From a virus (lineage: Duplodnaviria; Caudoviricetes): a DNA stretch of 64,000 bases. Shown here piece by piece: positions 155 to 42,349 of this stretch; position 1 is the first letter of the stretch, and the number at the start of each line of letters is the position of its first letter. The notes under the pieces were generated by a model. The model saw nothing but the letters and a program-made list of their open reading frames with translations. It had not been told where the DNA came from and searched no databases. The stretch spans positions 934 through 64,933 of the IMG/VR virus record IMGVR_UViG_3300034132_000017; one strand, 5' to 3'. Both the position numbers and the translations under genes were made by a program.

Positions 155-1582
155 ATGCCTAAGAAATCTGCCGCAGCTCGCACAGCTCACACGCTGAAAT
201 ACACTCCTGAAGTTGAATTGTGGTCAATCGATAGGGTTATCCCCTATGCACTGAACCATAAGAAGCACCCGCCAGAGCAAATCGCCAAACTCAAAAGCGG
301 AATCATTGAGTTTGGTTGGGACGTGCCGATCGTCGTGGATGAGAGCGGTGTGATCATCAAGGGCCATGGACGACGGCTCGCAGCCCTCGACCTGGGATTA
401 ACAGAAGTCCCGGTAATTGTGCGCTCTGATTTGAGCGAAGCGCAGAAGAAAGCGTGTCGCATTCATGACAATAAAAGCGCTGAATCTGACTATGATATCG
501 ATGCTCTGAAGGTTGAATTTGAAGCGTTAGCAGAGCTGAACTATGACCTTGATCTGACGGGTTTCGACAAGCTAGAAATCGGTGATTTTTTTCTGGATGG
601 TGAAGAGAATGACCATGCAGAAAAAAATGAGGAAGAGCAGTCTGGACCTGGTGGACCTGGTGAGGAAGATGAAGAAGAGGAAGCGCCACCAGAAAACCTC
701 GATACAATCGTCAGTCGGGTTAAACCTGGTGAAGTCTGGGAGGTTGCAGGGCATCGGGTGATGTGTGGTGACTGCCGAGATGCAGCACAAGTTAAGTTTC
801 TCCTGGGCAATGAGCCGATCAATCTGTCTGTCACCTCTCCCCCGTATGCCTCGCAGCGCAAATATGATGAGGAGTCAGGATTCAAGCCAATCAAGCCCAA
901 TGACTACTTGAGCTGGTATGAGCCAGTTCAAAGCATCATTAAGCAGCACTTAGCCCAAGACGGCTCCTACTTCCTGAACATCAAAGAGAGTGTTGAGGAC
1001 GGTTCCCGTCACCTGTACGTTAAAAAGCTGACGATCGCCCATGCTGAAGAGTGGAGCTGGCGATTTGTCGATGAGTTTGTCTGGAAGCGTCCAGGTGTCC
1101 CCGGCAAGTGGAAGGACAGATTTAAGAATGCCTGGGAACCTGTGTTTCATTTTGCTGTGTCAAGCGCGATTAAGTTTAACCCGCTGGCAGTTGCCCATCA
1201 CTCCACGGACCTGGTGGGAGATGGTGAAGCGCATGAGGCCAAGTCCAACGGAAAGTATTGGAACATGCCCAAGACTGAGAAGAAAGAGGGTTTGGCGCTT
1301 CCCGGCAACGTGCTAGAGATTGCAGCTTCTACAGGTGATGCAATGGGTCACTCTGCACCCTACCCAGTGAAGCTACCAGCATTTTTTATTCAGGCGTTCA
1401 GTGACGAGGGCGATCGCGTCTATGATCCGTTCCTGGGCAGTGGCACCACCTCTGTTGCAGCTCACAAGCACAAAAGAATAGGGCTGGGTATGGAACTCAG
1501 CCCTAAGCATTGCGAAATAATCCTACGTCGACTGGAAAAAGTAACTGAAACCACAGCTCAACTTGTAGATACCTACAAATAA
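155..1582 (+). CDS. ParB/Srx-domain fused N4/N6 DNA methyltransferase (beta class)
   Basis: N-terminal ParB-like motif (IVVDESGVIIKGHGRRLAA), acidic linker, catalytic SPPY before the SAM-binding DPFLGSGTT. Confidence 0.9.
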   Translation: MPKKSAAARTAHTLKYTPEVELWSIDRVIPYALNHKKHPPEQIAKLKSGIIEFGWDVPIVVDESGVIIKGHGRRLAALDLGLTEVPVIVRSDLSEAQKKACRIHDNKSAESDYDIDALKVEFEALAELNYDLDLTGFDKLEIGDFFLDGEENDHAEKNEEEQSGPGGPGEEDEEEEAPPENLDTIVSRVKPGEVWEVAGHRVMCGDCRDAAQVKFLLGNEPINLSVTSPPYASQRKYDEESGFKPIKPNDYLSWYEPVQSIIKQHLAQDGSYFLNIKESVEDGSRHLYVKKLTIAHAEEWSWRFVDEFVWKRPGVPGKWKDRFKNAWEPVFHFAVSSAIKFNPLAVAHHSTDLVGDGEAHEAKSNGKYWNMPKTEKKEGLALPGNVLEIAASTGDAMGHSAPYPVKLPAFFIQAFSDEGDRVYDPFLGSGTTSVAAHKHKRIGLGMELSPKHCEIILRRLEKVTETTAQLVDTYK

Positions 1583-1613: not shown

Positions 1614-1910
1614 TTATGAAACTTTTTGTTGTCGTTTGAGGAAGTCAGCAAGGATGCGCCGGAACAGTTCGGTTTTGTTCTCCCCTGTCTCACCCATGAT
1701 TCCTTCTAGCTGTTCCCCAATCTCATTGGGGACCCTGCCGCCGAATTGATAATCCTTGCGCTTCTCCTCTGGGAGCTGGCGGCTTGGGCGAGGCTTCCCA
1801 GGTCCACCGTTGAGGATAGCGCCCGTTTCAGGATCATAGTGTCGATAGCGGTCTTTTTTTCTGCGGCGGATGGCTGGTCTAGCCGCAGCCGCAGATTTTT
1901 TTTCTGTCAT
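1614..1910 (-). CDS. ribbon-helix-helix (CopG-like) DNA-binding protein
   Basis: Basic N-terminus; C-terminal beta-alpha-alpha pattern YQFGGRVPNEIGEQLEGIMGETGENKTELFRRILADFL. Confidence 0.6.
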   Translation of the reverse strand: MTEKKSAAAARPAIRRRKKDRYRHYDPETGAILNGGPGKPRPSRQLPEEKRKDYQFGGRVPNEIGEQLEGIMGETGENKTELFRRILADFLKRQQKVS

Positions 1911-1990
1911 GCGTCACCCCCTAGAGCTTAATCACAGGGTAGAGTCGTTTAGCTGTAAACGTCAATTGATTGAAAAGTCAAGACGCTATT

Positions 1991-2458
1991 CTACCTGTCT
2001 TTTAGCACTTCATAAGGAACTGTAGAAGTCAATCTTGAGTAGAGCGTTTCTAGTTTGGTTTCTACCTCTCCAAACGCTTCCCGCAAGTCGGCGTAGCACT
2101 CCCAAGACTCCTCATCTTTGAGGGAATCCATTGTTGTGAGCTGGTGTAACGGCTCTCTCAAGACATCTAGAAGAGTTTCAAACGTTTCAAGTTTCACCAG
2201 GTCATCTCGCGTAACTTCTACTGGCTCTCGCTTCTCTCCATAGTGTTCGCCAACAGAGCGAACTATAGACTTGAAAGCTACTTGCCAGAAGCAAAGCATC
2301 TTTACGAGTTCAGATGGGGTGTTTGTGGGTTTTCCAGACATCAGCAAATGGGTAATGAAATTGTTAGCGACATCGTTATCGAGGTATATTCCAGTCGCAT
2401 CGAACCACCAGCGCTCTACCTCATGGCGGGAAATTCTTTTTGTATGTTGCTCAGTCAT
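1991..2458 (-). CDS. hypothetical protein
   Basis: ORF; start moved to ATG 2458 (MTEQH), which follows GGAGG. Confidence 0.65.
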   Translation of the reverse strand: MTEQHTKRISRHEVERWWFDATGIYLDNDVANNFITHLLMSGKPTNTPSELVKMLCFWQVAFKSIVRSVGEHYGEKREPVEVTRDDLVKLETFETLLDVLREPLHQLTTMDSLKDEESWECYADLREAFGEVETKLETLYSRLTSTVPYEVLKDR

Positions 2459-7196: not shown

Positions 7197-8291
7197 CTAT
7201 GCTTTGGCAACTGCACGGGCTTTATTTTCAATCGCTGCCATTCCAATTTTTGCAGGATTGCTGCCAGCAATCTTGTAGATGGCAGCCCAAGAGATTTTTT
7301 TGCTGTCATACAATCCCTTGATCACATCAGACTTGGAATAAATTTCAGCGTATGCCCGATAAGCGCGGGTAACATACTCTTTAGTTTTGCCAAACTTCGC
7401 CATGGTTGCTTCTAAGCCATCTGCCTCAAACGTTTGGCACAATTCGATAGTTTGCTGGAAGGTATCGCCCTTGAAGACATTAACCCTGACTGGTGCCATG
7501 CCAGTAGCGGCAGTCTTAGACTTAGAGGATTTTTTCAGCGTTCTAAGCTCTTCCTGCAATGCTGCAATCTGGGCTTGAATTTCGGCAATTCTTTTTTCTG
7601 ACTGAACTTTGCCGAAACTGTTATCCTCTGCCGACTCTACCAGTGAGAGGATTTTTTCTTCAGTGATGTTCTTAGGCATTGCCGGGAAGTTAATTTTTCC
7701 CTCAATCACCTCATTATCAGAAGTGATTTTGAGCCATTGTTGATAGGTGACTGCATTGTGACAATTGAAGAGATAATCGCCTAATTGGGCTACTACATCG
7801 CCTTTTGGAGCATCAATAATTTCTACCTTGTAGATTGGCTTGCCCTGGGCGGTCTTAACCTCTAATACCTCGCGCTTAATCGTCAGCTCAGAATCATCTA
7901 GATCAGCGCCAGCAGTTGTATAGACTGTGAACACGCTTTCAGAGCTGGCATCCTCTGGGGTTAATTCTTGCTCTAATGGTTGTTCTGTAACTTCCTCTGG
8001 TTGCTCTGTTGGTTGTTCTGTAACTTCCTCTGCAACGGGGGCGGGAATTTCAACGGCTGTAACTTCTGATTTCCTAGAATTGCCGCCCTTTCTAGACCTG
8101 GTTGGTTTTGCTGCTTGCTCTTCCTCTGGTTGCTCTGCAACTTCCTCTGGTTGCTTAGATTGAGCTTCTAAAATGCCGTCAATAATTGCAATGTTTTTGC
8201 AAACTGCTGGAAAGGTTAAACACAACTCAGAAGCAATAGCCTTCAATTCCTTCTGCTTTTTGACTTCTAATTCTGCAATTGTGTAAGACAT
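7197..8291 (-). CDS. Rho-N-like (HeH) domain, acidic repeat linker and C-terminal ParB-type HTH protein
   Basis: N-term ELEVKKQKELKAIASEL..IIDGILEAQ; EEVTEQP repeats; C-term FGKTKEYVTRAYRAY...LYDSKKISWAAIYKIA. Confidence 0.55.
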   Translation of the reverse strand: MSYTIAELEVKKQKELKAIASELCLTFPAVCKNIAIIDGILEAQSKQPEEVAEQPEEEQAAKPTRSRKGGNSRKSEVTAVEIPAPVAEEVTEQPTEQPEEVTEQPLEQELTPEDASSESVFTVYTTAGADLDDSELTIKREVLEVKTAQGKPIYKVEIIDAPKGDVVAQLGDYLFNCHNAVTYQQWLKITSDNEVIEGKINFPAMPKNITEEKILSLVESAEDNSFGKVQSEKRIAEIQAQIAALQEELRTLKKSSKSKTAATGMAPVRVNVFKGDTFQQTIELCQTFEADGLEATMAKFGKTKEYVTRAYRAYAEIYSKSDVIKGLYDSKKISWAAIYKIAGSNPAKIGMAAIENKARAVAKA

Positions 8292-8358
8292 CTGACTTGC
8301 TCCAATTCGGTGTGGTGTAGGATTCGCTTGAAAGCGGTTGAATCGCCCTCATGACAAC

Positions 8359-8398
8359 AGTATGCGCCACTTTCAGTTTAAGTGTCAACATATAAACG
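8359..8398 (-). promoter_or_regulatory. sigma70 promoter with operator
   Basis: TTGACA (8383-8388)-18-CATACT (8359-8364); AGTTTA-N12-TAAACG. Confidence 0.7.
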
Positions 8399-16913: not shown

Positions 16914-17192
16914 TTATGCAACCGCTACTTTCTCCTTGAGTAGCTTGCCAGCACTGAAGGCAGGAACCTTTGTAGCTGGAATTTGAATTGTCGCGCCCGT
17001 CGAAGGATTGCGCCCCTCTCGCGCTGATCTTTCCCTTACTTCAAAGGTGCCAAAGCCAACGAGCGTTACTTTGTCGCCAGAAGCTAGAGCCTCTGTCAAC
17101 ACTTCTAAAAAGGCATCGATCGCTGCATTAGCGTCTTTTTTGGTCATGCTGGCTTTGCCAGCGATCGCGTCTACCAGTTCACCTTTATTCAT
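16914..17192 (-). CDS. hup: histone-like DNA-binding protein HU
   Basis: MNKGELVDAIA...GDKVTLVGFGTFEVRER..REGRNP...VPAFSAGKLLKE. Confidence 0.97.
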   Translation of the reverse strand: MNKGELVDAIAGKASMTKKDANAAIDAFLEVLTEALASGDKVTLVGFGTFEVRERSAREGRNPSTGATIQIPATKVPAFSAGKLLKEKVAVA

Positions 17193-17255
17193 AGTTCTTT
17201 CCCATCCAGTACGCTACAACCCGCATTATATAAGGGTTAACTGGGCGTGAAACAC

Positions 17256-17292
17256 TAAGAGGGGGATGTAAGTTATTTACATCCCCCTCTTA
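17256..17292. terminator. 16-bp perfect inverted repeat (terminator or operator)
   Basis: TAAGAGGGGGATGTAA-gttat-TTACATCCCCCTCTTA. Confidence 0.55.
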
Positions 17293-17437
17293 GATTGAAT
17301 TGAAACGTTTCCATTCAATTAGCTACCCCAACAAGTGGGGCAACTCCAAATTAACTCATCTGGAAAAACACGTCAATAAAAACCCCTCACTTTGGAGGGG
17401 TGATTAACATTGGTGTATAAGTAAGATTGCAATAACT

Positions 17438-18013
17438 TTACGCCAGAATCAGCTCTGGAGTTAAAGTTGGTAGCGGGTCAAACTTGCACCAGCCGATATG
17501 CACCCGATCATAGGGGTGGTGCGGATATTCTGTTGCACTGCTGGGGGCATAGGAGGTGATTCTATCTATCACCCAATCCCCTTCGATTGACTTCACTTTA
17601 GTCGGATGATCATCGATTGGGGTATACCCTGCGATAGTGCGATCGCCGATCTGTGGAAAGTCTTCAGCGTCGTACATAACGCTGATTCCTAATTGCTTCT
17701 CGTTATTAATCCCGGAAACTTCAATTACTAGATCGAAGCGAGTGAAACCTAAATCTGGGTATTCATAACGAGCTGTGTTGCAGCTCCACTTTTCAAACGG
17801 TGGAAGAGCTGACCCTACAGGTTTAAACTCGATCAAGTTAACCTGCAAGTCTTCTGATAGCTCCATCCCTTTATAGGTGAAGATTGCGGCGATCTCAAAG
17901 TCTAGATCATCCATCCTAACGATGTCACCGATCGCTGGAGTTTCCCCCCATTCAGTTCGGAGATGATCCGCATCGCTGCCATACTTGACGGCTTCAAAGA
18001 TGTTTAATTTCAT
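17438..18013 (-). CDS. hypothetical protein with internal duplication
   Basis: PAIGD..FEIAAIFTY and PQIGD..WVIDRITSY repeats; SD AAGGAG. Confidence 0.7.
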   Translation of the reverse strand: MKLNIFEAVKYGSDADHLRTEWGETPAIGDIVRMDDLDFEIAAIFTYKGMELSEDLQVNLIEFKPVGSALPPFEKWSCNTARYEYPDLGFTRFDLVIEVSGINNEKQLGISVMYDAEDFPQIGDRTIAGYTPIDDHPTKVKSIEGDWVIDRITSYAPSSATEYPHHPYDRVHIGWCKFDPLPTLTPELILA

Positions 18014-20968: not shown

Positions 20969-21262
20969 ATGATTATGAGAGAATTTGCCAGGTTGAATAC
21001 TGGGGAACGAATGGGGAAGATTCAGCTCAGAGTGCAAATCCCAAAAGGATTGGACGCGATCGTAAGAATGATTGCGCCCTTCCTAAACGCTGGGCGCATG
21101 TGGACACCCGCCGAAGTTGTCACAGAAGCATTAGTTCTCTGGCTGCTGCAACCAGAGAATCAGGAGCTTATAAAAAGGCACAAGATAGAAGAACGGCTGA
21201 AGGAATTACTCACTAAGCCTGAGCAGGAAGAATTTGAGGAACTATTCAAAGAAGAGGAGTAG
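20969..21262 (+). CDS. RHH-like DNA-binding protein
   Basis: IQLRVQIPKGLDAIVR...AEVVTEALVLWL. Confidence 0.5.
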   Translation: MIMREFARLNTGERMGKIQLRVQIPKGLDAIVRMIAPFLNAGRMWTPAEVVTEALVLWLLQPENQELIKRHKIEERLKELLTKPEQEEFEELFKEEE

Positions 21263-21532
21263 TTGACCTGGGCAGCTCTCAGCTTCCCATCTATGCTCTG
21301 CAAGGTGGCAGACCGAGCATAGGAATTCCCAGTTATCGCGATCGTTGTTTTCCCGGTTGCGATCTTTGTGATGCAATTGCAGCGCAAACTTGCCTGACTC
21401 AGAGCGTGAGCCGCTCCCTTCACCATGTCGGGAACACTGCTTATTGCAACGCTCACAACAATAATCAAGCGCTTGTCTGATCTCCTCTGCAAGCGCTTCT
21501 AATTCATCAGTCGGTAGCTTCAGTTTGGGCAT
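21242..21532 (-). CDS. HNH endonuclease
   Basis: CERC...LQLHHKDRNRENNDRDNWEFLCSVCHLAEH. Confidence 0.85.
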   Translation of the reverse strand: MPKLKLPTDELEALAEEIRQALDYCCERCNKQCSRHGEGSGSRSESGKFALQLHHKDRNRENNDRDNWEFLCSVCHLAEHRWEAESCPGQLLLFFE

Positions 21533-29966: not shown

Positions 29967-30071
29967 ATGCTCGTCACAGATATTATTCCCAGCCTCATTT
30001 TTATTTTTGCTACTGGAATCATCACAGCGCTTTACCAGCACTCTGTTATGCGGAGTGTGCATCGCAAGTAG
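29967..30071 (+). CDS. 34-aa membrane peptide
   Basis: MLVTDIIPSLIFIFATGIITALY..., directly after the late motif at 29931. Confidence 0.5.
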   Translation: MLVTDIIPSLIFIFATGIITALYQHSVMRSVHRK

Positions 30072-30121
30072 TTCAAAACTGGCGTAAGTTTTGAGGTTTA
30101 GATTTTGTTTAGAGGTTCACT

Positions 30122-30277
30122 ATGCTCGTAATTCTCTGTTTGCTGCTCTGCCTGTTGCTCTGGTTCGGTGGCGTGACTATAAACGTCAATCTGACCTTGA
30201 TTGTTGAACCTGCTCAAACCAGCAACTTAGTTAATGTGACTACTAAGCAATCAGGACAGAAATGCTTGACCCCTTAG
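30122..30277 (+). CDS. 51-aa membrane peptide
   Basis: MLVILCLLLCLLLWFGG...; not in the ORF track. Confidence 0.4.
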   Translation: MLVILCLLLCLLLWFGGVTINVNLTLIVEPAQTSNLVNVTTKQSGQKCLTP

Positions 30278-30690
30278 TATTGCGAACGCTGGTGTCTGGG
30301 CTCCTGACTGATGCGATCGGCACCTATTCACTAGATACTGATGCCGGGACAGTGACTCAAAGCGCGATCGCCGTACTGCCAGATCTTGACGTTGGCTACA
30401 ATTACCCCCCAAGCGGCACAACGGTCACAGGGCTGGAAGTTGTAATCTATAAGCCTACTGCTGATTACGTTCCCATCATGGGGGGGAAGATGCAGCCGGC
30501 GACGTGGGAAGTGAGATTAAAGCAGTGGGACACAAACGCGAGTTTGACTGATCTCATGAACGCTTTAGTCCCGCAGCTTGCAAGCGCTCTAATTTACTGC
30601 CGATTTCTCAAGCCTGGTTATATTCCACCCAATCCACAGAAGGGGATAGTAGAGCAGGGAGTTATAAAATTCACTGAGTATTTAGCTTGA
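30262..30690 (+). CDS. putative tail terminator
   Basis: 142 aa immediately before the tail tube gene. Confidence 0.6.
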   Translation: MLDPLVLRTLVSGLLTDAIGTYSLDTDAGTVTQSAIAVLPDLDVGYNYPPSGTTVTGLEVVIYKPTADYVPIMGGKMQPATWEVRLKQWDTNASLTDLMNALVPQLASALIYCRFLKPGYIPPNPQKGIVEQGVIKFTEYLA

Positions 30691-30819
30691 TTTGGGCATT
30701 CTAAATTAGCTAGATAGTCACCTAATTTTCAATCGATCGCAACGCCCGGAGCGCCTTTCCGGGCGTTTTCTTTTGGTGGGAACTCCAGAGCGACCAACAA
30801 CCTCTAGAGGTCGTTCTGA

Positions 30820-31470
30820 ATGACTAACCAAAACTTTGTAATTGGTAACCAGACCAAGTTCTTTTTCTCGATTCTGCCTGCTTCAATGCTGGACAATCCG
30901 GCAGCTCCTACAGATGTCACGATCACTGTGGACGTTCCAGGCTCAGGCGGAAGCGTTGCTGTCAATGCAACTGCCATCCCAACTGTTGCACTTTCTAACC
31001 CAGTTCCAGAGGGTACACCAATCCCCTTTGTTGCAGGCGGCGCAACTTATTGGGCTTATACAACTCTGTCTGCTGCTGCTGGCGCAACCAGTCTGACTGT
31101 AGAGCCTTTACTGGTCGCAATTCCTGACGGTGCTCAAGGCGTTTATACCGCAATGCTGGAACTCATCGGGGGTACTACTTCTGATGAACAGATTCAGGCA
31201 CAGGATCAAGAAACGATGGTGTACGGTATGCCCCTTGGCTACTCTACCGGGATTGTTACCAAGGCATCTTGGAACCTGTCTTACACGTTTAACGTGTTGC
31301 CTTCTGACCCTGGCTACTTTCGCCTCGCTTATGCCGCTTCTCACGCGGTTGGTGGCGTTCGCGGTTGGGTGCGTAAAGAAGATCCAGCACCTTCAGGCTA
31401 TTCTCACGGCGAACGCATTGAAGGGCTTTGTGATGTGACTGACTTCAGCAAAACAAATCCTGCTGACGGT
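30820..31470 (+). CDS. major tail tube protein, exon 1 (217 codons)
   Basis: Tube-like beta pattern with an inserted Ig-like segment; ends at GGT before the intron. Confidence 0.8.
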
Positions 31471-31707
31471 AAACAATTGATTGCCGCCTAATTCAGTAAT
31501 GAGTTAGTGAACATGGGGTGAATTGCTGGAAACCTAAAGCGCAAGCCAAGGCAATCAGCAGCCAAGCCGGGGGAAGGGTTAAAAGTATCCCGGAAGGTTC
31601 AACGACTAGCGAGTGAGGAACCCATCCAATAAGCTCCACCAGCGCCCCACAACCCAAGCGGTTGAAGATATAGTCTGAGCCGTCTAGAAATAGCGGATTC
31701 CCGATCG
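31471..31707 (+). ncRNA. group I self-splicing intron (IA-like, no homing endonuclease)
   Basis: P AATTGCTGGAAAC, Q AATCAGCAGCC, R GTTCAACGACTAG, S AAGATATAGTCT; P1 with U.G pair; P2, P3, P4, P7, P8, P9 all pair; terminal G. Confidence 0.92.
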
Positions 31708-31770
31708 ATCATCACCGGGAAATGCACCTTTAAGGGTCGTGGCGCTCCTGTGCAGAAGCACTACAGCTAA
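31708..31770 (+). CDS. major tail tube protein, exon 2
   Basis: In frame after splicing: IITGKCTFKGRGAPVQKHYS*. Confidence 0.82.
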   Translation: MITGKCTFKGRGAPVQKHYS

Positions 31771-31893
31771 TCGCCAAAAAGAAAGGACACGCGGAGCCTC
31801 AACCCTCTGCCGCATGTCCATATTCTGTTGTTCCCTCGCATTCATTTCACTTGTGGGAACTCCATCACAACAATGTGATTAGAGAGTTCCAAA

Positions 31894-32436
31894 ATGCCTC
31901 AACAACTACCCCAACTGCCTTTTATCACTAAGCCTCAAGGTACTGAGAAGTACAACGTAGGCAATGCAATTATCGGTGAATTGGCAATCCCTAAACTTGG
32001 CGATCTATCAATCAATGAGCGTCGTTATCTCAAGCAAGTAACCGCAGAGCTGCCCGACCTTCGCAAAGAAGCAGTCAAGATGGCGAAGGTGATCGCTGAT
32101 GATATGGAAGCCAATCTACTCGATGTCTATAACGCACTGACCGCAGGCGATACCTACTACCTGTCAAACCATTTAGGCGAAGTAATTGAATTTCAAGACA
32201 AGATGGATCTCGTTAGTTCTCAACGACAGATGCACCTTGCAACAATGATTATTAAGTTCAGGATTGAGCCAGCCTGGGAAACCGAAAACACCGGAAACGC
32301 TGACCTGATTCACCCTGACCTTGTTAAAGAAATCGCTCAATTCGCTTCCAAAGAAGAGAACGGCTGGATTGTTGCCAAGCCTGAAGAAGAAGAGCCGACA
32401 ACTGAGGAAGACTTGGGAAAATCGCCGGAAGCGTAG
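31894..32436 (+). CDS. tail assembly chaperone (G-like)
   Basis: Between tube and tape measure genes; slippery site near its 3' end. Confidence 0.8.
   Translation: MPQQLPQLPFITKPQGTEKYNVGNAIIGELAIPKLGDLSINERRYLKQVTAELPDLRKEAVKMAKVIADDMEANLLDVYNALTAGDTYYLSNHLGEVIEFQDKMDLVSSQRQMHLATMIIKFRIEPAWETENTGNADLIHPDLVKEIAQFASKEENGWIVAKPEEEEPTTEEDLGKSPEA
32415..32421 (+). other. programmed -1 frameshift site G GGA AAA
   Basis: Canonical XXXYYYZ heptamer; the -1 frame is open from here through 33059. Confidence 0.85.
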
Positions 32437-33059
32437 ACGAGGAACCCGATTGGGCTTCTATCTACTGGCGGGTTAACCGCTATTGGTCAAACGATTCTAG
32501 ATTCTCGGCTGAAAACTTCGGTAATCAGCCGACTTACTTAATTTTGCAGGCGCTGGAGTTTGGGGCGAAGTTCAACGCTGAACAGTTGCACCTGGAAGAG
32601 TTGGGCATCGCAACGCTCACAGCGTTCTTTGTCAACAGCAATCGTGATCCTAAGAAAGGTAGTCCGGTCAAGGCTTCTGACTTCTTTCACTTTGCACCTA
32701 AAGATGCGAAGGATGAAATCAAAATTCCGGGACTGGCTTGTGATGCGTTCTTCTCGCTCATTGCTGATCGGCTGCTACCCAATTGGGTGTTAAACGTTGC
32801 GCCGATCGACCTTCTACGTTCCCAGAAGAGTAAGAATATTCGCTCTGTAGTCAAGCCTCGCGCCTGGCTCAGTGAAAATTTACTGCTGATCCTTCCTCGC
32901 GTGAAGGATGGGCAGGTTGAAGCTGCTTTGGCGTTTTCTAATAACGCTTCTGGGCTGGTGGAACTCTATGACGTGGACTCTCAGACTCGCTTCATCGTGC
33001 AGATTGAGAAACCCCAGATTGCCTGGATGCTTGACGCTGAGTTTGAAGTTGCATTATGA
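32415..33059 (+). CDS. tail chaperone GT extension (-1 frame)
   Basis: KIAGSVDEEPDWASIYWR... continues without a stop into the 32544-33059 ORF. Confidence 0.75.
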   Translation, partial: GKIAGSVDEEPDWASIYWRVNRYWSNDSRFSAENFGNQPTYLILQALEFGAKFNAEQLHLEELGIATLTAFFVNSNRDPKKGSPVKASDFFHFAPKDAKDEIKIPGLACDAFFSLIADRLLPNWVLNVAPIDLLRSQKSKNIRSVVKPRAWLSENLLLILPRVKDGQVEAALAFSNNASGLVELYDVDSQTRFIVQIEKPQIAWMLDAEFEVAL

Positions 33060-36000
33060 CCGAGTTAGGAGATGTCGGAATAGGTCTACAGCTTGACCTT
33101 AATGGGCTTGAAGAGCAGTTACAGCAGCTAGAGCAGTACACCGCTAAACCCATTAAGGTCAAGCTTCAATTAGACAAAGACGCAAAAGAGGCTATTCAGA
33201 GGGAGATTAAAGCTCTCAAAATTGAGCCTGTAAAAGTTGACATCGTTATCAACGATAAAGAGCTTGAAAGGCAGCTCAAGCGGCTCCAGAAGGTTAAAAA
33301 TGAGCTTGGCAACTATGAGATCAAGATTGACACCTCAAAGAGTGAAGCGAATCTTGCCAGGTTAGGTAGTGCGGTCAACGAAGTCAGATCCCAGATTAGG
33401 GGATTAGACCGTGATATTCGGCGGCTGGAAGATGTCAGCATCAATGTAAATACCCGTTTTAGCGATCGGCAGATTAAATCAGCTCTCAAAGAACTTGAGA
33501 ATCCTGAAGTTACTGTCGATGCAAAGTTTCGTAGAAAGCAGGTACAGAAAGAACTAGACCAGTTAGACAACTTAACTGTACTTGCTAAGGTTGTTCCAAT
33601 TGTTGACGAAAAAAGAGCGCTTCAACAACTTAAGCAACTTGAAGAGCCAATCAGACCGATCATTGCCCCCAGACTGCAAACCCGAAACCTCGAACGGCAA
33701 GTAGAGGAAAGCGTAGCAAGGGGCACTAAGGTTGGGTTTGAAACGGGTCTGAACAAAGTAAAAATCAAGTTTTTCAACCCAGACGACTATACAAAAGTCG
33801 AGCTATCTAAAAGTCCTAAATTTATTCGGAACGATTACAGACCTGATGCGCTGTTCTCAAAAGTCGAGGTATCTAAGACTCCTAAGCTAGTTCTGAACAC
33901 AGATTCACCATTAGTTAGAGACACGCTAACTAGAGGCTTTCAGGGGCTTCTGCAAGCGATTACAAATGCTGACGAACACAATCAGAGTGTCACAAGGTCT
34001 TCAGGAGGTCAGAAGGGTTCTAGTGGTCCTCTTAGCACCCCCATTGCTTTAGCGAGTAAAGCTGCATCTATCGCGATCAACCCAGAGAAGCAAGTTTATC
34101 AAGGCTTCATGAGTGGAATCGGGCAGAACCTTGCAGCACCTTTAACTAAAAACTTAATCAAAACGCTCAACAAAGAGTTAGGAACTGATCTCACCGCTCT
34201 AGGAACTGCTTTAGGAAAGCGGCTAATCTCAAAGGGTGCTGGACTCTCAAAAAGCCTGGGGATTACTCAAACTAGAGAAGACTTTTCCCTATTCGCTAAA
34301 GAAATTATTGAATTCTACAAAGATGTTGCAGGCGATATAAGTTTGCTCGATGGCGCAAAGCGCCGCTATCACGAAAACTACAAGTCAACTGCTGAACGGG
34401 TTAAAGCGAATGCGATCACCCGCTCTCAGGAAATCCAGAAAACCGATAAAGAAGCGGTAACGATTGTCTCTGGTGGGTTTGCAGGAAAGAAGGGTGAACA
34501 CGCAAAAGAGAATGTCATCCCTTTATTTCAGAAGCACAACCTATTAGAAAACCATGAGTTAGTTGATTTTAAGAATACGAACTCAGACACGAATGCTGGC
34601 TTATTCTCAGCCCCTCAGAAATGGTTACCAGAGGTATTAGTTAATAAGCTGTTGCGGAATGTCGTTAGGGGCAGTAATCCCGACGCTGAGAGGATGGCAA
34701 CTGAGGCACTAGCGCATCAGATGGCTAATCCTGGCAAACCTGTGAATTTGTTTGGCACCTCTGGAGGTGGTTTGAATGTTAGCGATGCTCTGGAAATCCT
34801 CAAAGCTACAGGCTCACAGGGCTTTAGGGGTGTGAGCGAGGGTACGCCGATCTCAGGTTTAATCAACAACAACAAGCGGGACGAATTTACAAACTTCATG
34901 GGGATGCTGGATCCCGCTGTACTCTTGACCTTGACACCCCAAGGTAGAGAAAACAATCGCTATCTAACAACAGGTGGCGCGGGGCACTACACACCCAACT
35001 ACTTCAAGGACAAAAATTTTAGGGATGAAACGACTGAATTCTACTCCCGCTCTAAGCCGCCAAAAGTACCACTAGGCTTTAGGATTGACAATTTAGGTAA
35101 GGAATCTCAGGGTGTTCAGGTTGGCATTAATGACCTGAAGGCGCGACAAGAGAAGCTGATCAGAGAACTTGAAATAGCTAACGCTGAATTAGATCAGAGC
35201 TTCCAACAGTTAGAGCAGTCAAGCAAAGAAACGAGCGCAAAGGCAACGAAACGGGCACGAAAGAGCTTAGAAGTCAGGCAGCGTAGGGATCAGTATCTTG
35301 CGAATCGTCAAGGCTTATCTGCAAATCCCCCACCAGAAAGTACCCAAGTAGTTCAGGGTCAGTCTCAGTTAAGCGATGTCAAAGTTAGCTCGGTTGTTGG
35401 AACTCAAAACCCCAGCAAAGAACAGTTTCAAGAAGTAATTGCCCGTAGAAAAGAATTATTCAAAACCCAGCTAAAGGCAGTTGAAGGATTAAATGGTGCA
35501 GAGAAAGCGGAAGCGCTTCGCCGAATCCTTCAAGTAGCACAGCAGGAAGAAGAGCGGGTTAATACTGATGTTGCTCAGAAGTTTGGGCGCAATATCAGCG
35601 GCGTATTAGCCAGCTATCGCAGGTTTTTAAGCTCTTCAGGTAATAAGCCTGGTGTTCAGCAAAACATTACACAGCAGCTCAACCAGCTATCGCCTGAAGC
35701 AGGTATCAGGGGAGGAAGGCAACGGGCAGAAGGACGGCTCTCAAGCCAAACACAGCAACAGTTAGATCGGTTCTCGCAGTCGTTCAACCTGGGCGGCACA
35801 CAACCACCCAACAGCACAATACCTGACGGACCTGATCAACTCTCAAAAGTTGCAGTCCCTACAGGTGTTAGCGGTCTTTTTGGAAAACTAAAGGCTTTTG
35901 TTGCCAGTGAGAAAGGATCGAATCTAATCTCAACAGTTGGAATCACTGCCAGCAAAGTGGCAGGTGCTCGACTTGGCAGCGAGTTAGGAATCGTTGGTGA

Positions 36001-39000
36001 GCTAGTAGGAGGTCTGGGCACTGGGCTAGTTGCACGAAACGCGATCGCTCTGGGTCGTTCTGGTGCGAGTGCTTACACAGGGCTGAAAGGTGACAAAGAC
36101 TTTCAATCGGCTGGTTTCAGAGAAAAGTTTAAGCGTGTTGCCCAACAAACAGGGGTCAACTTTAACTCTGAAGCTAATCAGAAGGATCTGGGTTCTGGTG
36201 TTTCTGGGGATCTGATCGGCGCGGGGGTTGGTGCTGCTGTCGGTAAAGGTCTAAGCCCACTACTTGGACGAATAGCGTCTGAACTCGATCAATCCGGCGT
36301 ACTGAAGCTGATAGAAAGCATTCCAGGTAAGGGGGCGATTGCCGCAGCAGTAGCAACACCGGGATTAGTCAAGTTAAGAGAAAGAATTGCAACTGCAACC
36401 ACTAAGCCTTCAAAGGACTTAGAGCAGTCTTCAGAGGTTGATGTAAAGCAGTTATCTAAAGTCGAGCAAAATCCTTTACAGGCTTTTGCTGATCGATTCA
36501 AAGCGCTGTTTAGTAAGCAACGGCTGGACGCTCAAAAGACTTATGAAGCAATCATCCGAGAAACTGCAAAGCTCTCAGGAATCAATATCAAGCCTGGTGA
36601 CATCCCCAAGCTAGTTGTAAGCAACTCAAAGCTAGACGGCTCAAAAGCGCTCTACGACATCAAATCAAATCAAATCATTATCTCAAAGGCTACTGGCGAA
36701 TTACTCGGTAGCACGATCGAGAACATTCAGCGTCACCAGAAAAAGATAGCTGATGTCGTTCATGAAGCTAGACACGCTCTACAGCTTAACTTTGGCAAAA
36801 CTTCAATCGGTGAGATTGCTGGAGGGATAAAGCAGCCTAACGTACCTTTATTTGACCCTAACAAACCTCATTCTGAATATGTAGCAAAAGGTGCTGATTT
36901 ATCAGTACAGGCATCAGTAAACAGTGCAGCGGCTAAAGGTTATACAGTCCCACAGATAGGACTAGAAACCCTTAAGCGCTTAGAGCTAGATGCTTATCAG
37001 TTTGAAGAGCAGTTCACAGGAAAAATAGTTGATTCGGTTGCTCAAGCGCTCAAGTCTGTTGGTGAAGAGTTCAACCCTGATGTTCTTTACAAGAGAGAGA
37101 AGAGCGAGAGCCAGAGAAAGCTACAGCAGGCAGTTTTCAAGGGTGGACAGAAAACACCCAATCCCGAAGTAAAAACGTCAGTCGTTGAAGTCTTGCCCCC
37201 AGAAGCGCTCAAACTTCCAGAAGCAAGACCCAAAACTGACACAACTCAGACCATAGATGTCGGACAGACTCAAGCAGCTCCTAAGAGTGCGAATCAGCGA
37301 CGGCTCAGAGAAGTTTTCTTCGCAAAGGGAGAGGATCGCGAAGCATTAATTTCTGAGGCGATCGGATTCAGAGCTGGAAAAGTCAATCGGGCAAGATATG
37401 AAGCTGTTCGAGCGGTTAGCCCTGAGTTTGGGGAACAGTTCGCAGATGACATCTCACGTAGAAAAGCGCGGAAAATTGCCGGAGATCAAGCGAGGCAAGA
37501 GGTTAAAGAGACTGTTAAATCTGGGGTCAAAGAAGCCACAAACAACTTTAGCCAGAGAATCTCCGGAAACGTCCCACCGACTGAAGCAGGAAAAAGCTTA
37601 CCCTTCAGACCAAGCATAGGAAATGCTAAAGCGGCTTTCCAAGGGTTGTTTGAAGACCTTGACACCCTGAAAGGAAAGTTGAATATCGAAGGCGTTTTAT
37701 CGGGCTTCTCAAAGAACTTCGATAAAACATTCGCTTCGATTCGGAAAGGTTTTGATGTCGGCACAGGTGGCGACTTAGGGGTAGTTTACCGACTTCAGAA
37801 CTACGCGAGAGGGATTCAGGGGGCGTTTAATTTTGGTCGAAAAATTGATCAACCTTTTGACAAGCTCAAAGAAGCTGGTGATCGGGTTTTCCCCAATCTT
37901 GGAACTAAAGCTTTACAACTCGGTAAAGCATTTCTGGGTATAGCTGGCGTAGCAATTATAGCCAGTGAAGTTATCAAGCTTGGAAAGGCTTCATTTGGCG
38001 CGTTCGTTGAGTTAGACAAGCTCAAGACTGCCCTTAACTTTGCTGTGGGTGGTCAATCTCAAGGGGCAAGCGCTCTCAAGTTTGTAGGTGAAACAGTTGA
38101 TCAGCTCAAGATTCCCCTAGCTGGCTCAGTTAAAGGTTTCACACAGTTAGCGGCTGCCACCAGGGGAACCACCGCAGAGGGTAAGGGCACTCGCGATGTG
38201 TTTCTGGGTCTATCACAGGCATCTACAGTTCTCAGTTTGTCTGCTGATGAAACTCAAGGTGCTCTACTTGCACTTTCCCAAAGCGCTTCCAAGGGAGTGG
38301 TCAGTTCTGAAGAGCTTCGGCAGCAGTTAAGCGAACGTATTCCCGGCGCAATGGGCATTGCAGCGAGAAGCATGGGGCTTACTGAGTCTGCTTTCAACTC
38401 ACTTCTAGAGTCAGGTCAGATTCTATCAAGTGATTTTCTACCCAGGTTTGGTAAGCAACTGCAAGCAGAGTTTGGGGATGCCGCTAAAAGTGCTGCTGGC
38501 AATGCTCAGAGCGCTATTTTTAATCTTCAGAACGCATTCACCAAACTACAGCAAGGGTTTGGTGAGGGTATTTCTCCAGCAGCGATCGGCATTCTAAATA
38601 TCTTTGCAGTTGTTGTTGAGGTAGTAGCGAACAACATTCAGCATTTGGTTTTAGCCCTAACTGCTATTGGGTTAACTCTAACTCAGATGTTCATCTCTTC
38701 TCTAGTCGCTTCAATCGGCTGGATGGGCATCGCTAAAGCTGTAGTAGGTTCGCTGTCTACTGTCTTAGGAGCATTAACTACAGTAGTTCAGCGGTTCGGT
38801 AAAGAGCTGGCGATAGCTGGCTTGAGCTTTGTGATCATTGAGATGATCAAAGCGGTTGCAGATGCCGTTAACAACGATTTGAGCCAGTCTTTCAAAAAGG
38901 CGGCTGAGGAAGCGAGAAAGACTGCTGAAGCTGCGAAGGACATCAAACCCCCGCCCAACGGCAAAGACGGGAATGGTAACGGTCAGGGTAATGAACCTGA

Positions 39001-42000
39001 GAAGCCTAAAACCACTGCTGAGGTGCAGGGTAGAGGGGGTCAAAAGGGTTTACCCTCAAACGGCGTTATTGATGATGTCAGCAGGGATAAAGAGAAGGGT
39101 GGCATTAATGGAATCTTCGATATAGCAACTCTCGGAATAGGGAAAATCGGAGAGCAGATAAATCGAGGTGTTACCTACCTCAAAACTGGGAGCGCTGACT
39201 ATTACTCTTATGCAGACTTAAGGCGAGATGACGTAATCAAAGGCGTTGCCGATATGACGGGCTATAACTCTGAGTTTTCGGGTGACGCTCGTAGTCGGCT
39301 GGCTGAACTGAAAATGGGTACCGGGAGGGGTGCCCAGTTCAAAAAGATTGATAAAGATCTGCAAAATGCACAGGATGAGCAGAAAGCGCTGAAGTCTGAG
39401 GCAGATCAGAAGTACACCCGCAAAGGGTTAGCAGTCGATCCTGACCTGCAATTTAAGATTCAGCAGAACCAGGACAAAATTAAAACTCTCAATCAACAGC
39501 GTCAGGATGCGGCTGAGCCGTTCCAGCAAAACTTAGCTGGAATTGAGAAGCTGATCAATAACACGAAAGGCAAAATTGAAGAGCTGAAAGACCCTGAAGT
39601 TGTGAAAGCAGTTGGGGGTCAGGCAGTCGCAGACGAGCGGAGGGGAGCGCTTCAGGAGTCACTGAACAACCTCAATAAACTCAAGGTTGAATATCAGTCA
39701 ACGATGAGCGCTTTGAGGACTGATCCAGTTCTGGCTTTAGGGAATGCGTTTGAACAGCTAACTAAGCAGCTTGACGATGCAAAGCGTTCTACAGAGCGCT
39801 ATCTAGCAACCCAGAAAGAGAAGAATATTCGGGGTGAAATTGCGGGTTTTGCAACTGATCCCAATGCAGGGCGTAAAGCAGCTCTGGCAAACCTTCAGGC
39901 TGAACGCAACGGGGCTGAAGATGAACTGAATTCAACTAATAAAGGGATTGCAGATCTCAAACCTGTTGTTGAAAGTCAGGCAACTAGCGCAGCTCTGGCA
40001 GGGTTCGGATTATCTCAAGACAGCACGATCGGAGACATTGATAAAGAACTTGGGCGAACAGGTCAAACTGATGCAGACAAGCCGAAACGCCAGGTTCTAG
40101 AGCAGTTCAAGAAATATAAAGAGCTGCAAGATAAAGTCCCTCAATTAAACCTGAATGTTGCTGAAAAAGAGAAGGCAATTCAGGAGCAAGTACAGACAAA
40201 CACCCTCGCTGACCTTGATCGCGACACTGCTAATCGGGAGTCGAGAGTTAAGCGTACTGAAAGCTCTCAGACTGCGGCTGTTCGTGCCCGTCAGCTAAAG
40301 ACTGGTGAGAGCGATACACAGGTAGGTGATCAACTCGCACGAATTCAGCTTAACGCTACTAAGGACTATCAAAAGAGTCTGAATACTCAACTTCAATCGC
40401 TTGAAGATGCCCATCAGAAAGGCATTATCAGCGCTGAAGAGTACGAAAAGAGACGGCGCGACATTGAGGATCGGTTGGGTGATCTAGGGGTCAAGAAAGC
40501 TGAACAAGAGTTAGCAGTCAGAAAGGCTGTCAGTGCAAAGATTCTAGAGAACCTTCAGATTGCGGCTGATAAGGCTCAACTTGAAGCTAAGAAGATTCAA
40601 AACACCGCAGTTATCAGCATTAAGCGGAACATTATCAAGAAGGGGTTAGACGCTAACGATTCAGAAGCGGGAGTAGATTTGGCGAAGGCTGATCTAGATG
40701 CGACCAACCGACAGGAAGGGCTTATCGGTAATCAACTCGCTGAACTAACCGCCAACAAAGACAAGATTGACCCTGAAGAATTTCGTAAGAAGTCGATGGA
40801 GCTGGAAGGTCAGCTTTCAGACTTGGGTGTTCAGAAGGCAGATAAAGAGCTGGCTTTAAGAGATGCGATCAACCGCAAAATCATCGAAGGGTTGGAGCTG
40901 GCTAACCAGCAGGCAACGGCAGCGGTTCAACTTTCTGAGACTGAAAGAGTTACTGCAAATAAAGCGACTCTAGCAACGAGTGATCCTGACGTTGGTAAGT
41001 ATTCTGAAGCGGCTGTAGAGCGCTCTAACGTCCTGATAGAAGCTGACTCTACCAGTCAGAGGATCGCGCTTAAACAGCGTGAGATTGAACAGAACCGGAA
41101 GTTGGTTGCTGATAAGAATCGCAGCGCTAAAGAAGGGCAAAAAATTGAGCTTCAGTTGCAGCAGGAAGTAGCAGAACTCAATCAGAAGCGAGTTGATCAG
41201 GAAATCCGCTTGCAGAAGGAGTTACGGGACAAGCGAATTCAACTGCTTGAGGATGTTGAAAAATACGAACTTAAGAGTCTGCAACGCTCTAAAGACCTCG
41301 TGCAGGCCCAACAGGGGTTAGCTAAAGCTCTCAATGATCTAGCAAATGCTGGTGATAAGGGCAGAGCTGATCAGTTTGGTCGTGCAGCAGAACTGATTAA
41401 GAAACGCGACGACGAAAACTCTGGTCCCGAAACTCAGGAAGCGGCTCGAAACCAGCTCAAGCGGTTGGGTGTCGATGAGAACGCGACTGAGCTTGATGTT
41501 TTGGCTAAAAAGGCTGAGATTGAAAACCGGATTGCAGAACGCAAGATGGCAGCTCAGGAGCTGGAGTTTGACTATCAGAAGAAAATTCTGGAGTTAGAAA
41601 TCCAGCGCGATAAGTTGGCAGCTAAACAGGAAATCAGGAAAGCGAAGAAGGATGTTCGCGATGCTGAAAAGGCTGATAGACAGGCAAAATCAGACCTACT
41701 AGAAGCCTATAAGAGCGGTGATCCTGAAAAAATTCGCGATGCCGAGTTAGCGGCTGAGAGTGCAGGAATTGATGTCAAAGATGCAAAGCTCAACCTCAAA
41801 GATGCCCAGGAAAACTCTGACGCTGTAGATAAGACCGCAGATTACAAACGCCAAACGCTGGCGGCCACCCAAGACACTCAGCGGCAAGATACCTATTACC
41901 AGGAAGAGAACCGGGCTGAAACCCAGGATATGACCCTCGCAGAGCTGAGGGATAAGTACGGTGACGATGGGAAATCGCGGGGGATTGCCGATCGCGGCTA

Positions 42001-42349
42001 TAGGCAAGTAGATGCTTACGGGCAGAGGCTCACAGACATCTACAACACTCAGAACAAGAACGAATTTGCCAACCTCGAAATGAAACCCAACTCGCAGTTT
42101 GCCTATGCGCCTGCGGGCCCCACGGCTGGAACATTCGATCAAGCGGGAGCTGCACAGCAACCCGCCAGTGTTTCTAGCGCACTGGGCGAGGGGTTCACCT
42201 ACATGGGTCAGAAGTTTGATGAGTTGAGCCAGAAGATTGAAGCGGCGATCAATAGACCAACTTCTGTAGCGTTCCACAGTCAGAAACCTGTAGACGACTA
42301 TGCCGACTACCAGAATCGGCAAGCAGGTAACACTCTGAGAGCTTGGTAG
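33056..42349 (+). CDS. tape measure protein with embedded hydrolase- and peptidase-like domains
   Basis: 3097 aa; tape-measure domain (LSQSASKGVVSSEELRQQLSERIPGA); GTSGG at 34754; HEARH at 36761. Confidence 0.93.
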   Translation: MTELGDVGIGLQLDLNGLEEQLQQLEQYTAKPIKVKLQLDKDAKEAIQREIKALKIEPVKVDIVINDKELERQLKRLQKVKNELGNYEIKIDTSKSEANLARLGSAVNEVRSQIRGLDRDIRRLEDVSINVNTRFSDRQIKSALKELENPEVTVDAKFRRKQVQKELDQLDNLTVLAKVVPIVDEKRALQQLKQLEEPIRPIIAPRLQTRNLERQVEESVARGTKVGFETGLNKVKIKFFNPDDYTKVELSKSPKFIRNDYRPDALFSKVEVSKTPKLVLNTDSPLVRDTLTRGFQGLLQAITNADEHNQSVTRSSGGQKGSSGPLSTPIALASKAASIAINPEKQVYQGFMSGIGQNLAAPLTKNLIKTLNKELGTDLTALGTALGKRLISKGAGLSKSLGITQTREDFSLFAKEIIEFYKDVAGDISLLDGAKRRYHENYKSTAERVKANAITRSQEIQKTDKEAVTIVSGGFAGKKGEHAKENVIPLFQKHNLLENHELVDFKNTNSDTNAGLFSAPQKWLPEVLVNKLLRNVVRGSNPDAERMATEALAHQMANPGKPVNLFGTSGGGLNVSDALEILKATGSQGFRGVSEGTPISGLINNNKRDEFTNFMGMLDPAVLLTLTPQGRENNRYLTTGGAGHYTPNYFKDKNFRDETTEFYSRSKPPKVPLGFRIDNLGKESQGVQVGINDLKARQEKLIRELEIANAELDQSFQQLEQSSKETSAKATKRARKSLEVRQRRDQYLANRQGLSANPPPESTQVVQGQSQLSDVKVSSVVGTQNPSKEQFQEVIARRKELFKTQLKAVEGLNGAEKAEALRRILQVAQQEEERVNTDVAQKFGRNISGVLASYRRFLSSSGNKPGVQQNITQQLNQLSPEAGIRGGRQRAEGRLSSQTQQQLDRFSQSFNLGGTQPPNSTIPDGPDQLSKVAVPTGVSGLFGKLKAFVASEKGSNLISTVGITASKVAGARLGSELGIVGELVGGLGTGLVARNAIALGRSGASAYTGLKGDKDFQSAGFREKFKRVAQQTGVNFNSEANQKDLGSGVSGDLIGAGVGAAVGKGLSPLLGRIASELDQSGVLKLIESIPGKGAIAAAVATPGLVKLRERIATATTKPSKDLEQSSEVDVKQLSKVEQNPLQAFADRFKALFSKQRLDAQKTYEAIIRETAKLSGINIKPGDIPKLVVSNSKLDGSKALYDIKSNQIIISKATGELLGSTIENIQRHQKKIADVVHEARHALQLNFGKTSIGEIAGGIKQPNVPLFDPNKPHSEYVAKGADLSVQASVNSAAAKGYTVPQIGLETLKRLELDAYQFEEQFTGKIVDSVAQALKSVGEEFNPDVLYKREKSESQRKLQQAVFKGGQKTPNPEVKTSVVEVLPPEALKLPEARPKTDTTQTIDVGQTQAAPKSANQRRLREVFFAKGEDREALISEAIGFRAGKVNRARYEAVRAVSPEFGEQFADDISRRKARKIAGDQARQEVKETVKSGVKEATNNFSQRISGNVPPTEAGKSLPFRPSIGNAKAAFQGLFEDLDTLKGKLNIEGVLSGFSKNFDKTFASIRKGFDVGTGGDLGVVYRLQNYARGIQGAFNFGRKIDQPFDKLKEAGDRVFPNLGTKALQLGKAFLGIAGVAIIASEVIKLGKASFGAFVELDKLKTALNFAVGGQSQGASALKFVGETVDQLKIPLAGSVKGFTQLAAATRGTTAEGKGTRDVFLGLSQASTVLSLSADETQGALLALSQSASKGVVSSEELRQQLSERIPGAMGIAARSMGLTESAFNSLLESGQILSSDFLPRFGKQLQAEFGDAAKSAAGNAQSAIFNLQNAFTKLQQGFGEGISPAAIGILNIFAVVVEVVANNIQHLVLALTAIGLTLTQMFISSLVASIGWMGIAKAVVGSLSTVLGALTTVVQRFGKELAIAGLSFVIIEMIKAVADAVNNDLSQSFKKAAEEARKTAEAAKDIKPPPNGKDGNGNGQGNEPEKPKTTAEVQGRGGQKGLPSNGVIDDVSRDKEKGGINGIFDIATLGIGKIGEQINRGVTYLKTGSADYYSYADLRRDDVIKGVADMTGYNSEFSGDARSRLAELKMGTGRGAQFKKIDKDLQNAQDEQKALKSEADQKYTRKGLAVDPDLQFKIQQNQDKIKTLNQQRQDAAEPFQQNLAGIEKLINNTKGKIEELKDPEVVKAVGGQAVADERRGALQESLNNLNKLKVEYQSTMSALRTDPVLALGNAFEQLTKQLDDAKRSTERYLATQKEKNIRGEIAGFATDPNAGRKAALANLQAERNGAEDELNSTNKGIADLKPVVESQATSAALAGFGLSQDSTIGDIDKELGRTGQTDADKPKRQVLEQFKKYKELQDKVPQLNLNVAEKEKAIQEQVQTNTLADLDRDTANRESRVKRTESSQTAAVRARQLKTGESDTQVGDQLARIQLNATKDYQKSLNTQLQSLEDAHQKGIISAEEYEKRRRDIEDRLGDLGVKKAEQELAVRKAVSAKILENLQIAADKAQLEAKKIQNTAVISIKRNIIKKGLDANDSEAGVDLAKADLDATNRQEGLIGNQLAELTANKDKIDPEEFRKKSMELEGQLSDLGVQKADKELALRDAINRKIIEGLELANQQATAAVQLSETERVTANKATLATSDPDVGKYSEAAVERSNVLIEADSTSQRIALKQREIEQNRKLVADKNRSAKEGQKIELQLQQEVAELNQKRVDQEIRLQKELRDKRIQLLEDVEKYELKSLQRSKDLVQAQQGLAKALNDLANAGDKGRADQFGRAAELIKKRDDENSGPETQEAARNQLKRLGVDENATELDVLAKKAEIENRIAERKMAAQELEFDYQKKILELEIQRDKLAAKQEIRKAKKDVRDAEKADRQAKSDLLEAYKSGDPEKIRDAELAAESAGIDVKDAKLNLKDAQENSDAVDKTADYKRQTLAATQDTQRQDTYYQEENRAETQDMTLAELRDKYGDDGKSRGIADRGYRQVDAYGQRLTDIYNTQNKNEFANLEMKPNSQFAYAPAGPTAGTFDQAGAAQQPASVSSALGEGFTYMGQKFDELSQKIEAAINRPTSVAFHSQKPVDDYADYQNRQAGNTLRAW

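Follow-up and report, generated by a model that had tools for sequence, protein, structure and literature searches.

The window analyzed here, the whole 64,000-nt stretch taken from IMG/VR record IMGVR_UViG_3300034132_000017, contains on its + strand a predicted major tail (tube) gene whose frame is split by a 237-nt insert. Exon 1 (30820-31470), as delimited by the ORF list and 18 homologs, has 217 codons and ends ...TNPADG with GGU as its last codon; exon 2 (31708-31770), as delimited by homolog C-termini and intron-less loci, has 20 codons (IITGKCTFKGRGAPVQKHYS) plus TAA. The next gene begins 123 nt beyond the tube stop, and two ORFs (31894-32436 and 32544-33059, both +) occupy the tail-assembly-chaperone position ahead of the tape measure gene (33056-42349, +; 3097 aa), whose homologs in the related loci L002 and L225 carry PF20155 (TMP_3). 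The order of tube, two chaperone-position genes and tape measure is the same in L002 and L225. Relatives of the tape measure occur in versions of 3058-3403 aa, and the window's 3097-aa ORF is likewise very long. Just 3' of the tube stop (31786-31835) there is a ~10-bp GC-rich inverted repeat (GGACACGCGG ... CCGCAUGUCC) with a T-rich run, which resembles an intrinsic terminator separating the tube gene from the chaperone genes; the motif GTGGGAACTCC recurs ahead of the tube gene, at ~30777, and ahead of the gene that follows it, at ~31854. Other genes of the element include those for a P22-type coat protein, a portal protein (DUF4055), a sigma factor, a methylase and a serine recombinase. Scans of genomes and metagenomes with a tube profile returned few loci, whose named hosts are Stigonema and Oscillatoriales MAGs. 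The element is a temperate, siphovirus-like one of filamentous cyanobacteria, and its record is ~73% complete by CheckV.

The assignment of the split gene came from structure and gene order. Exon 1 has 18 homologs at 40-73% identity, but neither a Pfam match (E <= 0.1) nor a PHROG match (E <= 0.01), and among the tube neighbours the only Pfam or PHROG match is to phrog_34388, of unknown function, at 32544-33056. An AF2 model of the intron-less homolog P0005 (66-67% identical; 16-sequence alignment; pLDDT 81, pTM 0.74) has as its best PDB matches the tail tubes of FCWL1/T1, monocin, lambda gpV and 80alpha (E 5e-8 to 1e-3), and its matches among the BFVD predicted viral structures are major tail proteins. 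This fold match, together with the gene order, points to a siphovirus major tail (tube) protein, in agreement with the first-pass annotation, which had named the gene and proposed a group I intron within it.

That proposal is borne out by Rfam: RF00028 (Intron_gpI) matches 31461-31696 (+) at 91.5 bits (E 3.7e-22; gathering cut-off 50 bits) over its full length (model positions 1-253), and this is the sole gathering-level RNA match both in the window and across the whole 64,933-bp IMG/VR provirus record. The intron itself spans 31471-31707 (237 nt) and holds no ORF, hence no endonuclease gene, again as first described. Its 5' border falls after U31470, the last exon base, and its 3' border after omega-G 31707. 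Joining U31470 to A31708 gives NPADG followed by IITGKCTFKGRG..., just as encoded by the intron-less homologs (mostly 233-241 aa or ~305 aa), in which NP(A/S)DG is followed by IITGKCTFKGRG(A/T)Pxx(K/H)HY(S/A/V). At the DNA level the intron-less locus L017 is collinear with two window segments that adjoin each other in it, 31168-31469 and 31708-31764, and the tube gene is likewise uninterrupted at the junction in L016, L008, L009 and others. The collinearity and the homolog C-termini together fix the intron at 31471-31707 and the spliced product at 237 aa (217 + 20, ending ...DG-IITGKCTFKGRGAPVQKHYS), so that the splice sites and the in-frame protein proposed at first both stand.

Among the candidate terminal Gs, only G31707 restores the frame seen in homologs. 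Two other 3' splice sites were considered and rejected: G31696, at the end of the Rfam match, gives an exon 2 frame that is absent from homologs, and G31703, which would allow a longer P10 (AUCGAU/AUUGAU), reads IDHHREMHL-stop, a frame like that of no homolog. Several biocrust and soil DNA runs, independent of one another, contain contigs that read through both junctions and include the intron, which rules out an assembly artefact; in the contigs of the four DNA runs examined the intron-less joint was absent, all being intron-bearing, and no RNA run was listed for 30820-31900. These sequence comparisons confirm both the group I identity of the insert and its exact borders.

The predicted ribozyme appears complete. 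P1 (31467-31486) pairs exon CGGU and intron AA (31467-31472) with the internal guide UUGCCG (31481-31486), giving 6 bp that include U31470.G31483 at the 5' splice site, as seen in the Rfam match and in a three-copy alignment of the window intron with its counterparts in L002 and L003. P2 is an 8-bp hairpin (31488-31507; 31488-95 with 31500-07) closed by a GUAA loop, which becomes GGAA or GCAA in the other two copies, and three of its pairs are compensated in L003. P3 (31514-20 with 31643-49) encloses P4 (31524-29/31555-60), P5/P5a (31533-35/31549-51 and 31539-40/31545-46) and P6/P6a (31561-62/31597-98 and 31567-71/31589-93), and its span (31514-31649) also holds the 5' strand of P7. The register of P4 is the one first drawn, and the Rfam helix end differs from it by one pair. 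P7 (31604-31675; GACUA 31604-08 with UAGUC 31671-75) forms a pseudoknot with P3, and within it lie P8 (31650-54/31660-64) and J8/7. Between P7 and P3 is a bipartite P7.1-type hairpin (31613-31639; 31613-15/31637-39 and 31617-19/31625-27), one G-C pair of which is C-G in L002. P9 (31680-86 with 31691-96) has a GAAA loop and several compensated pairs. P9.0 pairs G31677-A31678 with U31705-C31706 ahead of omega-G 31707, and P9.0, P9 and omega-G together span 31677-31707; in the alignment P9.0 is, by eye, GA/UC in the window and L002 and swapped to UC/GA in L003. Finally, AUCA 31708-11 is able to pair with UGAU 31478-81 as P10. All features lie on the + strand, and across the three copies compensatory changes occur in P2, P3, P5a, P6a, the P7-P3 hairpin, P8 and P9.

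A search model (R1) built from these three copies retrieved 138 related introns in 99 viral-metagenome loci, and every helix that the first-pass annotation had listed (P1, P2, P3, P4, P7, P8, P9 and P9.0, with omega-G) is present at its stated place in the window. Standard pairs form in 91.8% of 7001 pair cells (shuffled 67%; slid partners 30-42%), and both sides have changed at 55 of 63 pairs; a caveat is that the alignment was fitted to R1. P1 shows compensatory changes at 6/6 pairs, and of the 110 family sequences with letters at the splice-site pair, 80 have U.G. The share of family cells paired is 92% for P2, 84% for P3, 99% for P4, 95% for P5, 98% for P6a and 96.6% for P7; the two parts of the P7.1-type hairpin reach 76% and 89%, with compensatory changes. 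R1 had mis-nested P3 and P7 into three false helices (41-62% paired), and the counts given here treat P7 as a pseudoknot. Because R1 lacked the correct P3/P7 arrangement, the 84% and 97% pairing of these two helices is an independent check of both. The window copy matches 45/45 columns conserved at >=90% in the family and thus appears free of any sign of decay.

The 34 nt between P7 and P3 form the one bipartite hairpin with covariation support; two separate hairpins could not be drawn. Extra pairings here (P7.1/P7.2) are reportedly a criterion for subgroup IA, one said to go back to Michel and Westhof in 1990. Peripheral elements serve to define group I subgroup classes (PMC3984707). When R1 was run against Staphylococcus phage Twort, it gave two full-length matches (16969-17188 and 17246-17475; 38-43 bits, E 1e-10 to 1e-11) in an unannotated gap after ORF106, which, from their spacing and their place after the large ORF011, we take to be orf142 introns 2 and 3, both assigned to subgroup IA2 (PMC10136302). 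The window intron is IA-like in these respects, and a subgroup IA call is plausible.

What the intron would do to the gene follows from where it sits. The unspliced ORF (30820-31491) ends ...TNPADGKQLIAA (...GKQLIAA) at an in-frame TAA (31489-31491, +) between P1 and P2, which terminates unspliced translation at 223 aa and is kept at the same position in L002 and L003; an early stop of this kind is typical of phage introns (PMC2504315, PMC3984707). In the proposed pathway the pre-mRNA would fold into the P1-P10 ribozyme, an external guanosine would attack after U31470, and the freed exon 1 would attack after omega-G 31707, joining ...NPADG to IITGKCTFKGRGAPVQKHYS in a 237-aa tube protein; the predicted spliced junction is ...GCUGACGGU joined to AUCAUCACC. 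Ribosomes on unspliced RNA would instead halt at the TAA and release the 223-aa product without its last two beta strands. In the P0005 model the exon 2 residues form exactly these strands (223-231 and 236-238), and F229, R232, G233 and P235 (P0005 numbering) in this part are nearly invariant; a working, complete tube protein would therefore need splicing, as far as the model of this homolog can tell.

Relatives place the same intron lineage at two nearby sites. Introns of the same kind at the same site occur in L002 (238 nt, Rfam 92.3 bits) and L003 (239 nt, 85.6 bits), i.e., at site A, after GAC-GGU, as in the window. In L222 and L224 the window's intron lineage (181.8 bits) lies at site B, 12 nt downstream, after ACU-GGU, that is, after ...IITG instead of ...ADG. 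Each site ends in GGU, and a single internal guide, GCCG, suits both. Intron identity between relatives (71-84%) exceeds that of the adjoining exon DNA (57-65%), a difference that could reflect transfer but fits structural constraint too. The family retrieved by R1 consists of compact (~200-290 nt), ORF-less introns of uncultivated viral contigs, up to six per contig (e.g., L178, L217, L102, L098 and L097 among the 99 loci), and the host genes checked include cyanophage psbA (D1), major head proteins (phrog_1328, phrog_283) and RNA polymerase. The closest relatives outside tube genes (L024, L083, L182 and L204) split a gene that resembles a major capsid gene by eye and has no PHROG match. A blastn search of 30000-32500 against a phage collection returned just three ~60-nt matches to the core.

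A further insert occupies the downstream position in other relatives. In L004 (4871-5107; also L005, L006 and L012) an unrelated 237-nt insert lies 12 nt downstream of the window site (...VITG/KLTFKGRG). It folds well (z -5.05) at an Rfam score of just 18 bits, and its layout is group I-like, with P1 carrying a U.G pair, P2, P3/P7, P8, three 3' hairpins and a terminal G. Searches with nhmmer found four relatives in viral contigs (L236:~8206-8368(-), L293:~7288-7452(-), L344:~1778-1993(-) and L252:~774-979(+)), none of them detected by Rfam, and their alignment shows compensatory changes by eye; a 14-mer scan for this intron stayed at chance level, leaving the nhmmer search as the informative one. 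The insert may represent a group I lineage that RF00028 misses.

The region beside the tube gene also has a recurrent neighbour. In six relatives a GIY-YIG gene abuts the tube gene 3' end (L002:2690-4039(-), L004:5162-6496(-), L007:3842-5167(+), L222:3001-4347 and L225:3001-4224, with a further copy in L223). The proteins form a free-standing family of ~407-449 aa with repeated NUMOD-like C-terminal modules, encoded on one strand or the other between the tube gene and the chaperone genes, and in L002 the 3' end of the gene overlaps the last tube codons. The GIY-YIG domain scores 40, 25 and 27 bits in L002, L004 and L007 (Pfam cut-off 22.6), and precomputed PF01541 matches exist for P0022 (L222-L224) and P0028 (L225). 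In L002 the cassette accompanies the window's intron at site A; in L004, L005, L006 and L012, the different intron 12 nt downstream; and in L222 and L224, the window's lineage at the downstream site. It also stands beside intron-less tube genes in L223, in L225 and, on the other strand and with a diverged target region, in L007. L223 belongs to the same phage population as L222: the two (L222:4437-4687(-), with L224, versus L223:~2554-2640) have an identical GIY-YIG protein and identical tube exons, and their sole difference is the 251-nt intron, a natural presence/absence polymorphism. The target sequence of L223 is ordinary-looking. Since L223, L225 and L007 bear the cassette and are intron-less, the intron is not required for protection from the neighbouring enzyme.

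In the window itself, tblastn found no homolog of either GIY-YIG protein. With no endonuclease gene within the intron or beside the tube gene, the window intron is a passive passenger in this element. It most likely arrived, or was left behind, by DNA-level homing in trans driven by a free-standing GIY-YIG cassette such as its relatives carry, a suggestion we make tentatively from the arrangement of these loci. A more specific version of this idea is possible, though on balance we doubt it: the last ~60 nt of the tube gene would be a contested homing hot spot, with the GIY-YIG cassette targeting the conserved DGIITGKCTFKGRG coding segment and the window intron an orphan of trans homing. As equally uncertain parts of the same scenario, at least two unrelated intron lineages would have become established there, in two sites separated by 12 nt, and the window's lineage would have jumped from the site after GAC-GGU to the site after ACU-GGU, as one guide fits both.

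The same observation feeds a different account, in which the intron spread without any endonuclease, by reverse splicing into RNA, reverse transcription and recombination, and the GIY-YIG gene is an unrelated neighbour. As both sites, 12 nt apart and occupied by one lineage, fit the guide GCCG, site switching by reverse splicing is a live alternative, and the intron-less state of half of the GIY-YIG-bearing loci agrees with it. However, no reverse transcriptase is known to take part, and introns are present at 3/6 cassette loci versus 1/~6 cassette-free ones, counts too small for significance; we regard this account as unlikely, if worth keeping in view. It is much harder to see the intron as a decayed, splicing-dead remnant and the tube gene as a pseudogene in a degrading prophage. 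A missing homing endonuclease and an incomplete record (~73% by CheckV) could be read this way, but the 45/45 strongly conserved core positions are intact, P1, P9.0, P10 and omega-G are all in place, the reading frame is open and conserved in both exons, compensatory changes preserve the structure across three copies that have diverged to 78-84% identity, and the intron-bearing form recurs in several independent metagenome runs, all of which makes such decay very improbable. Least credible of all is mobilization in trans by the small HNH-like protein of 21242-21532 (-; 96 aa), the candidate named in the first-pass annotation: the ORF has an HNH-like Cys/His/Asn motif by eye (CxxC..HH..N..CxxCH), and in phage T4 the free-standing HNH enzyme mobE can drive homing of the I-TevIII intron in trans (PMC2790892), but a Pfam search with this ORF gave nothing at E <= 0.001, 10 kb separate it from the intron with nothing to link the two, and beside the tube gene the relatives examined have no HNH gene, six of them having the GIY-YIG cassette at that place. 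We favor, with high confidence, an intact, ORF-less group I intron with an IA-type core in the 3' end of the tube gene that would be spliced in vivo, is carried passively, and was probably moved by GIY-YIG-driven homing in trans.

The elements of this reading have precedents, and it changes no concept: tail-tube introns, and partnerships of introns with free-standing endonucleases, are already described. The location is therefore less rare than first implied, given the published tail-tube introns of Twort orf142 (PMC11878797, PMC10136302) and of the Bacillus cereus-group prophage BwK1/B4264 (Tourasse and Kolsto 2008, PMC2504315), and the spliced introns in capsid and tail genes of siphoviruses (PMC3706429). 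The Twort introns are likewise small, ORF-less group I introns within a tail-tube gene; however, Twort, a myovirus, infects a Gram-positive host and has three introns, with exon skipping, in the one gene, whereas the cyanobacterial element of the window has a single intron, with one bipartite hairpin in its P7-P3 region, in a tube gene of siphovirus type, and the tube proteins have no detectable sequence similarity. The B. cereus-group prophage resembles the window in that an in-frame intron with an early stop in P1/P2 and an IA-class core interrupts a structural prophage gene. The same study covers introns of tape-measure genes, and reports that neighbouring sites can carry similar introns and one site different introns (PMC2504315), a pattern like that of sites A and B in the window's family, but the host phylum is another, the tube protein is unrelated, and no adjacent free-standing endonuclease is described.

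Collaborative homing, as summarized in reviews (PMC3984707; PMC6083498), pairs the ORF-less psbA intron of cyanophage S-PM2 with the free-standing F-CphI (Zeng et al. 2009) and also operates in phage T3/phiI (Bonocora and Shub). The likeness lies in an ORF-less intron within a conserved gene and, in L002, L004 and L222, an adjoining free-standing endonuclease gene; the model R1 family even includes cyanophage psbA introns. The differences are that the partner is absent from the window, that the enzyme in its relatives is GIY-YIG rather than EndoVII-like or HNH with a cleavage site that is only putative, and that three cassette-bearing relatives are intron-less. In Cluster J mycobacteriophages, temperate siphoviruses as well, group I introns that are spliced interrupt capsid genes and minor tail genes (Pope et al. 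2013, PMC3706429). At 265 bp the BAKA tail intron is similarly small; it has no ORF, follows a U at its 5' splice site and ends in G. However, its host gene encodes a minor tail protein, not the tube, and splicing was demonstrated there by RT-PCR, whereas here it is deduced from sequence.

For annotation, the practical consequence is that gene-calling programs end this tube protein early, at 223 aa, and overlook exon 2 with its 20 codons. Public gene calls are truncated where the intron is present (P0006, P0013, P0017, and the 297-aa calls of L222/L224), and spurious intron-encoded ends have entered database proteins (GKQLIAA, GKKMIAA, GTLLNAA, GKQLCPAL and GKRLSKVAIAA). For phage biology, the window adds a cyanobacterial, temperate, siphovirus-type case to the few tail-tube genes that would need RNA splicing. 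Its relatives, in which one lineage occupies two sites, another is found at one of the two, and the GIY-YIG cassette occurs with and without an intron, make a compact natural data set on how partnerships between ORF-less introns and free-standing homing endonucleases arise. If the hot-spot scenario were true, these loci, including the pair L222 and L223, would form a natural series of stages in the birth of mobile introns.
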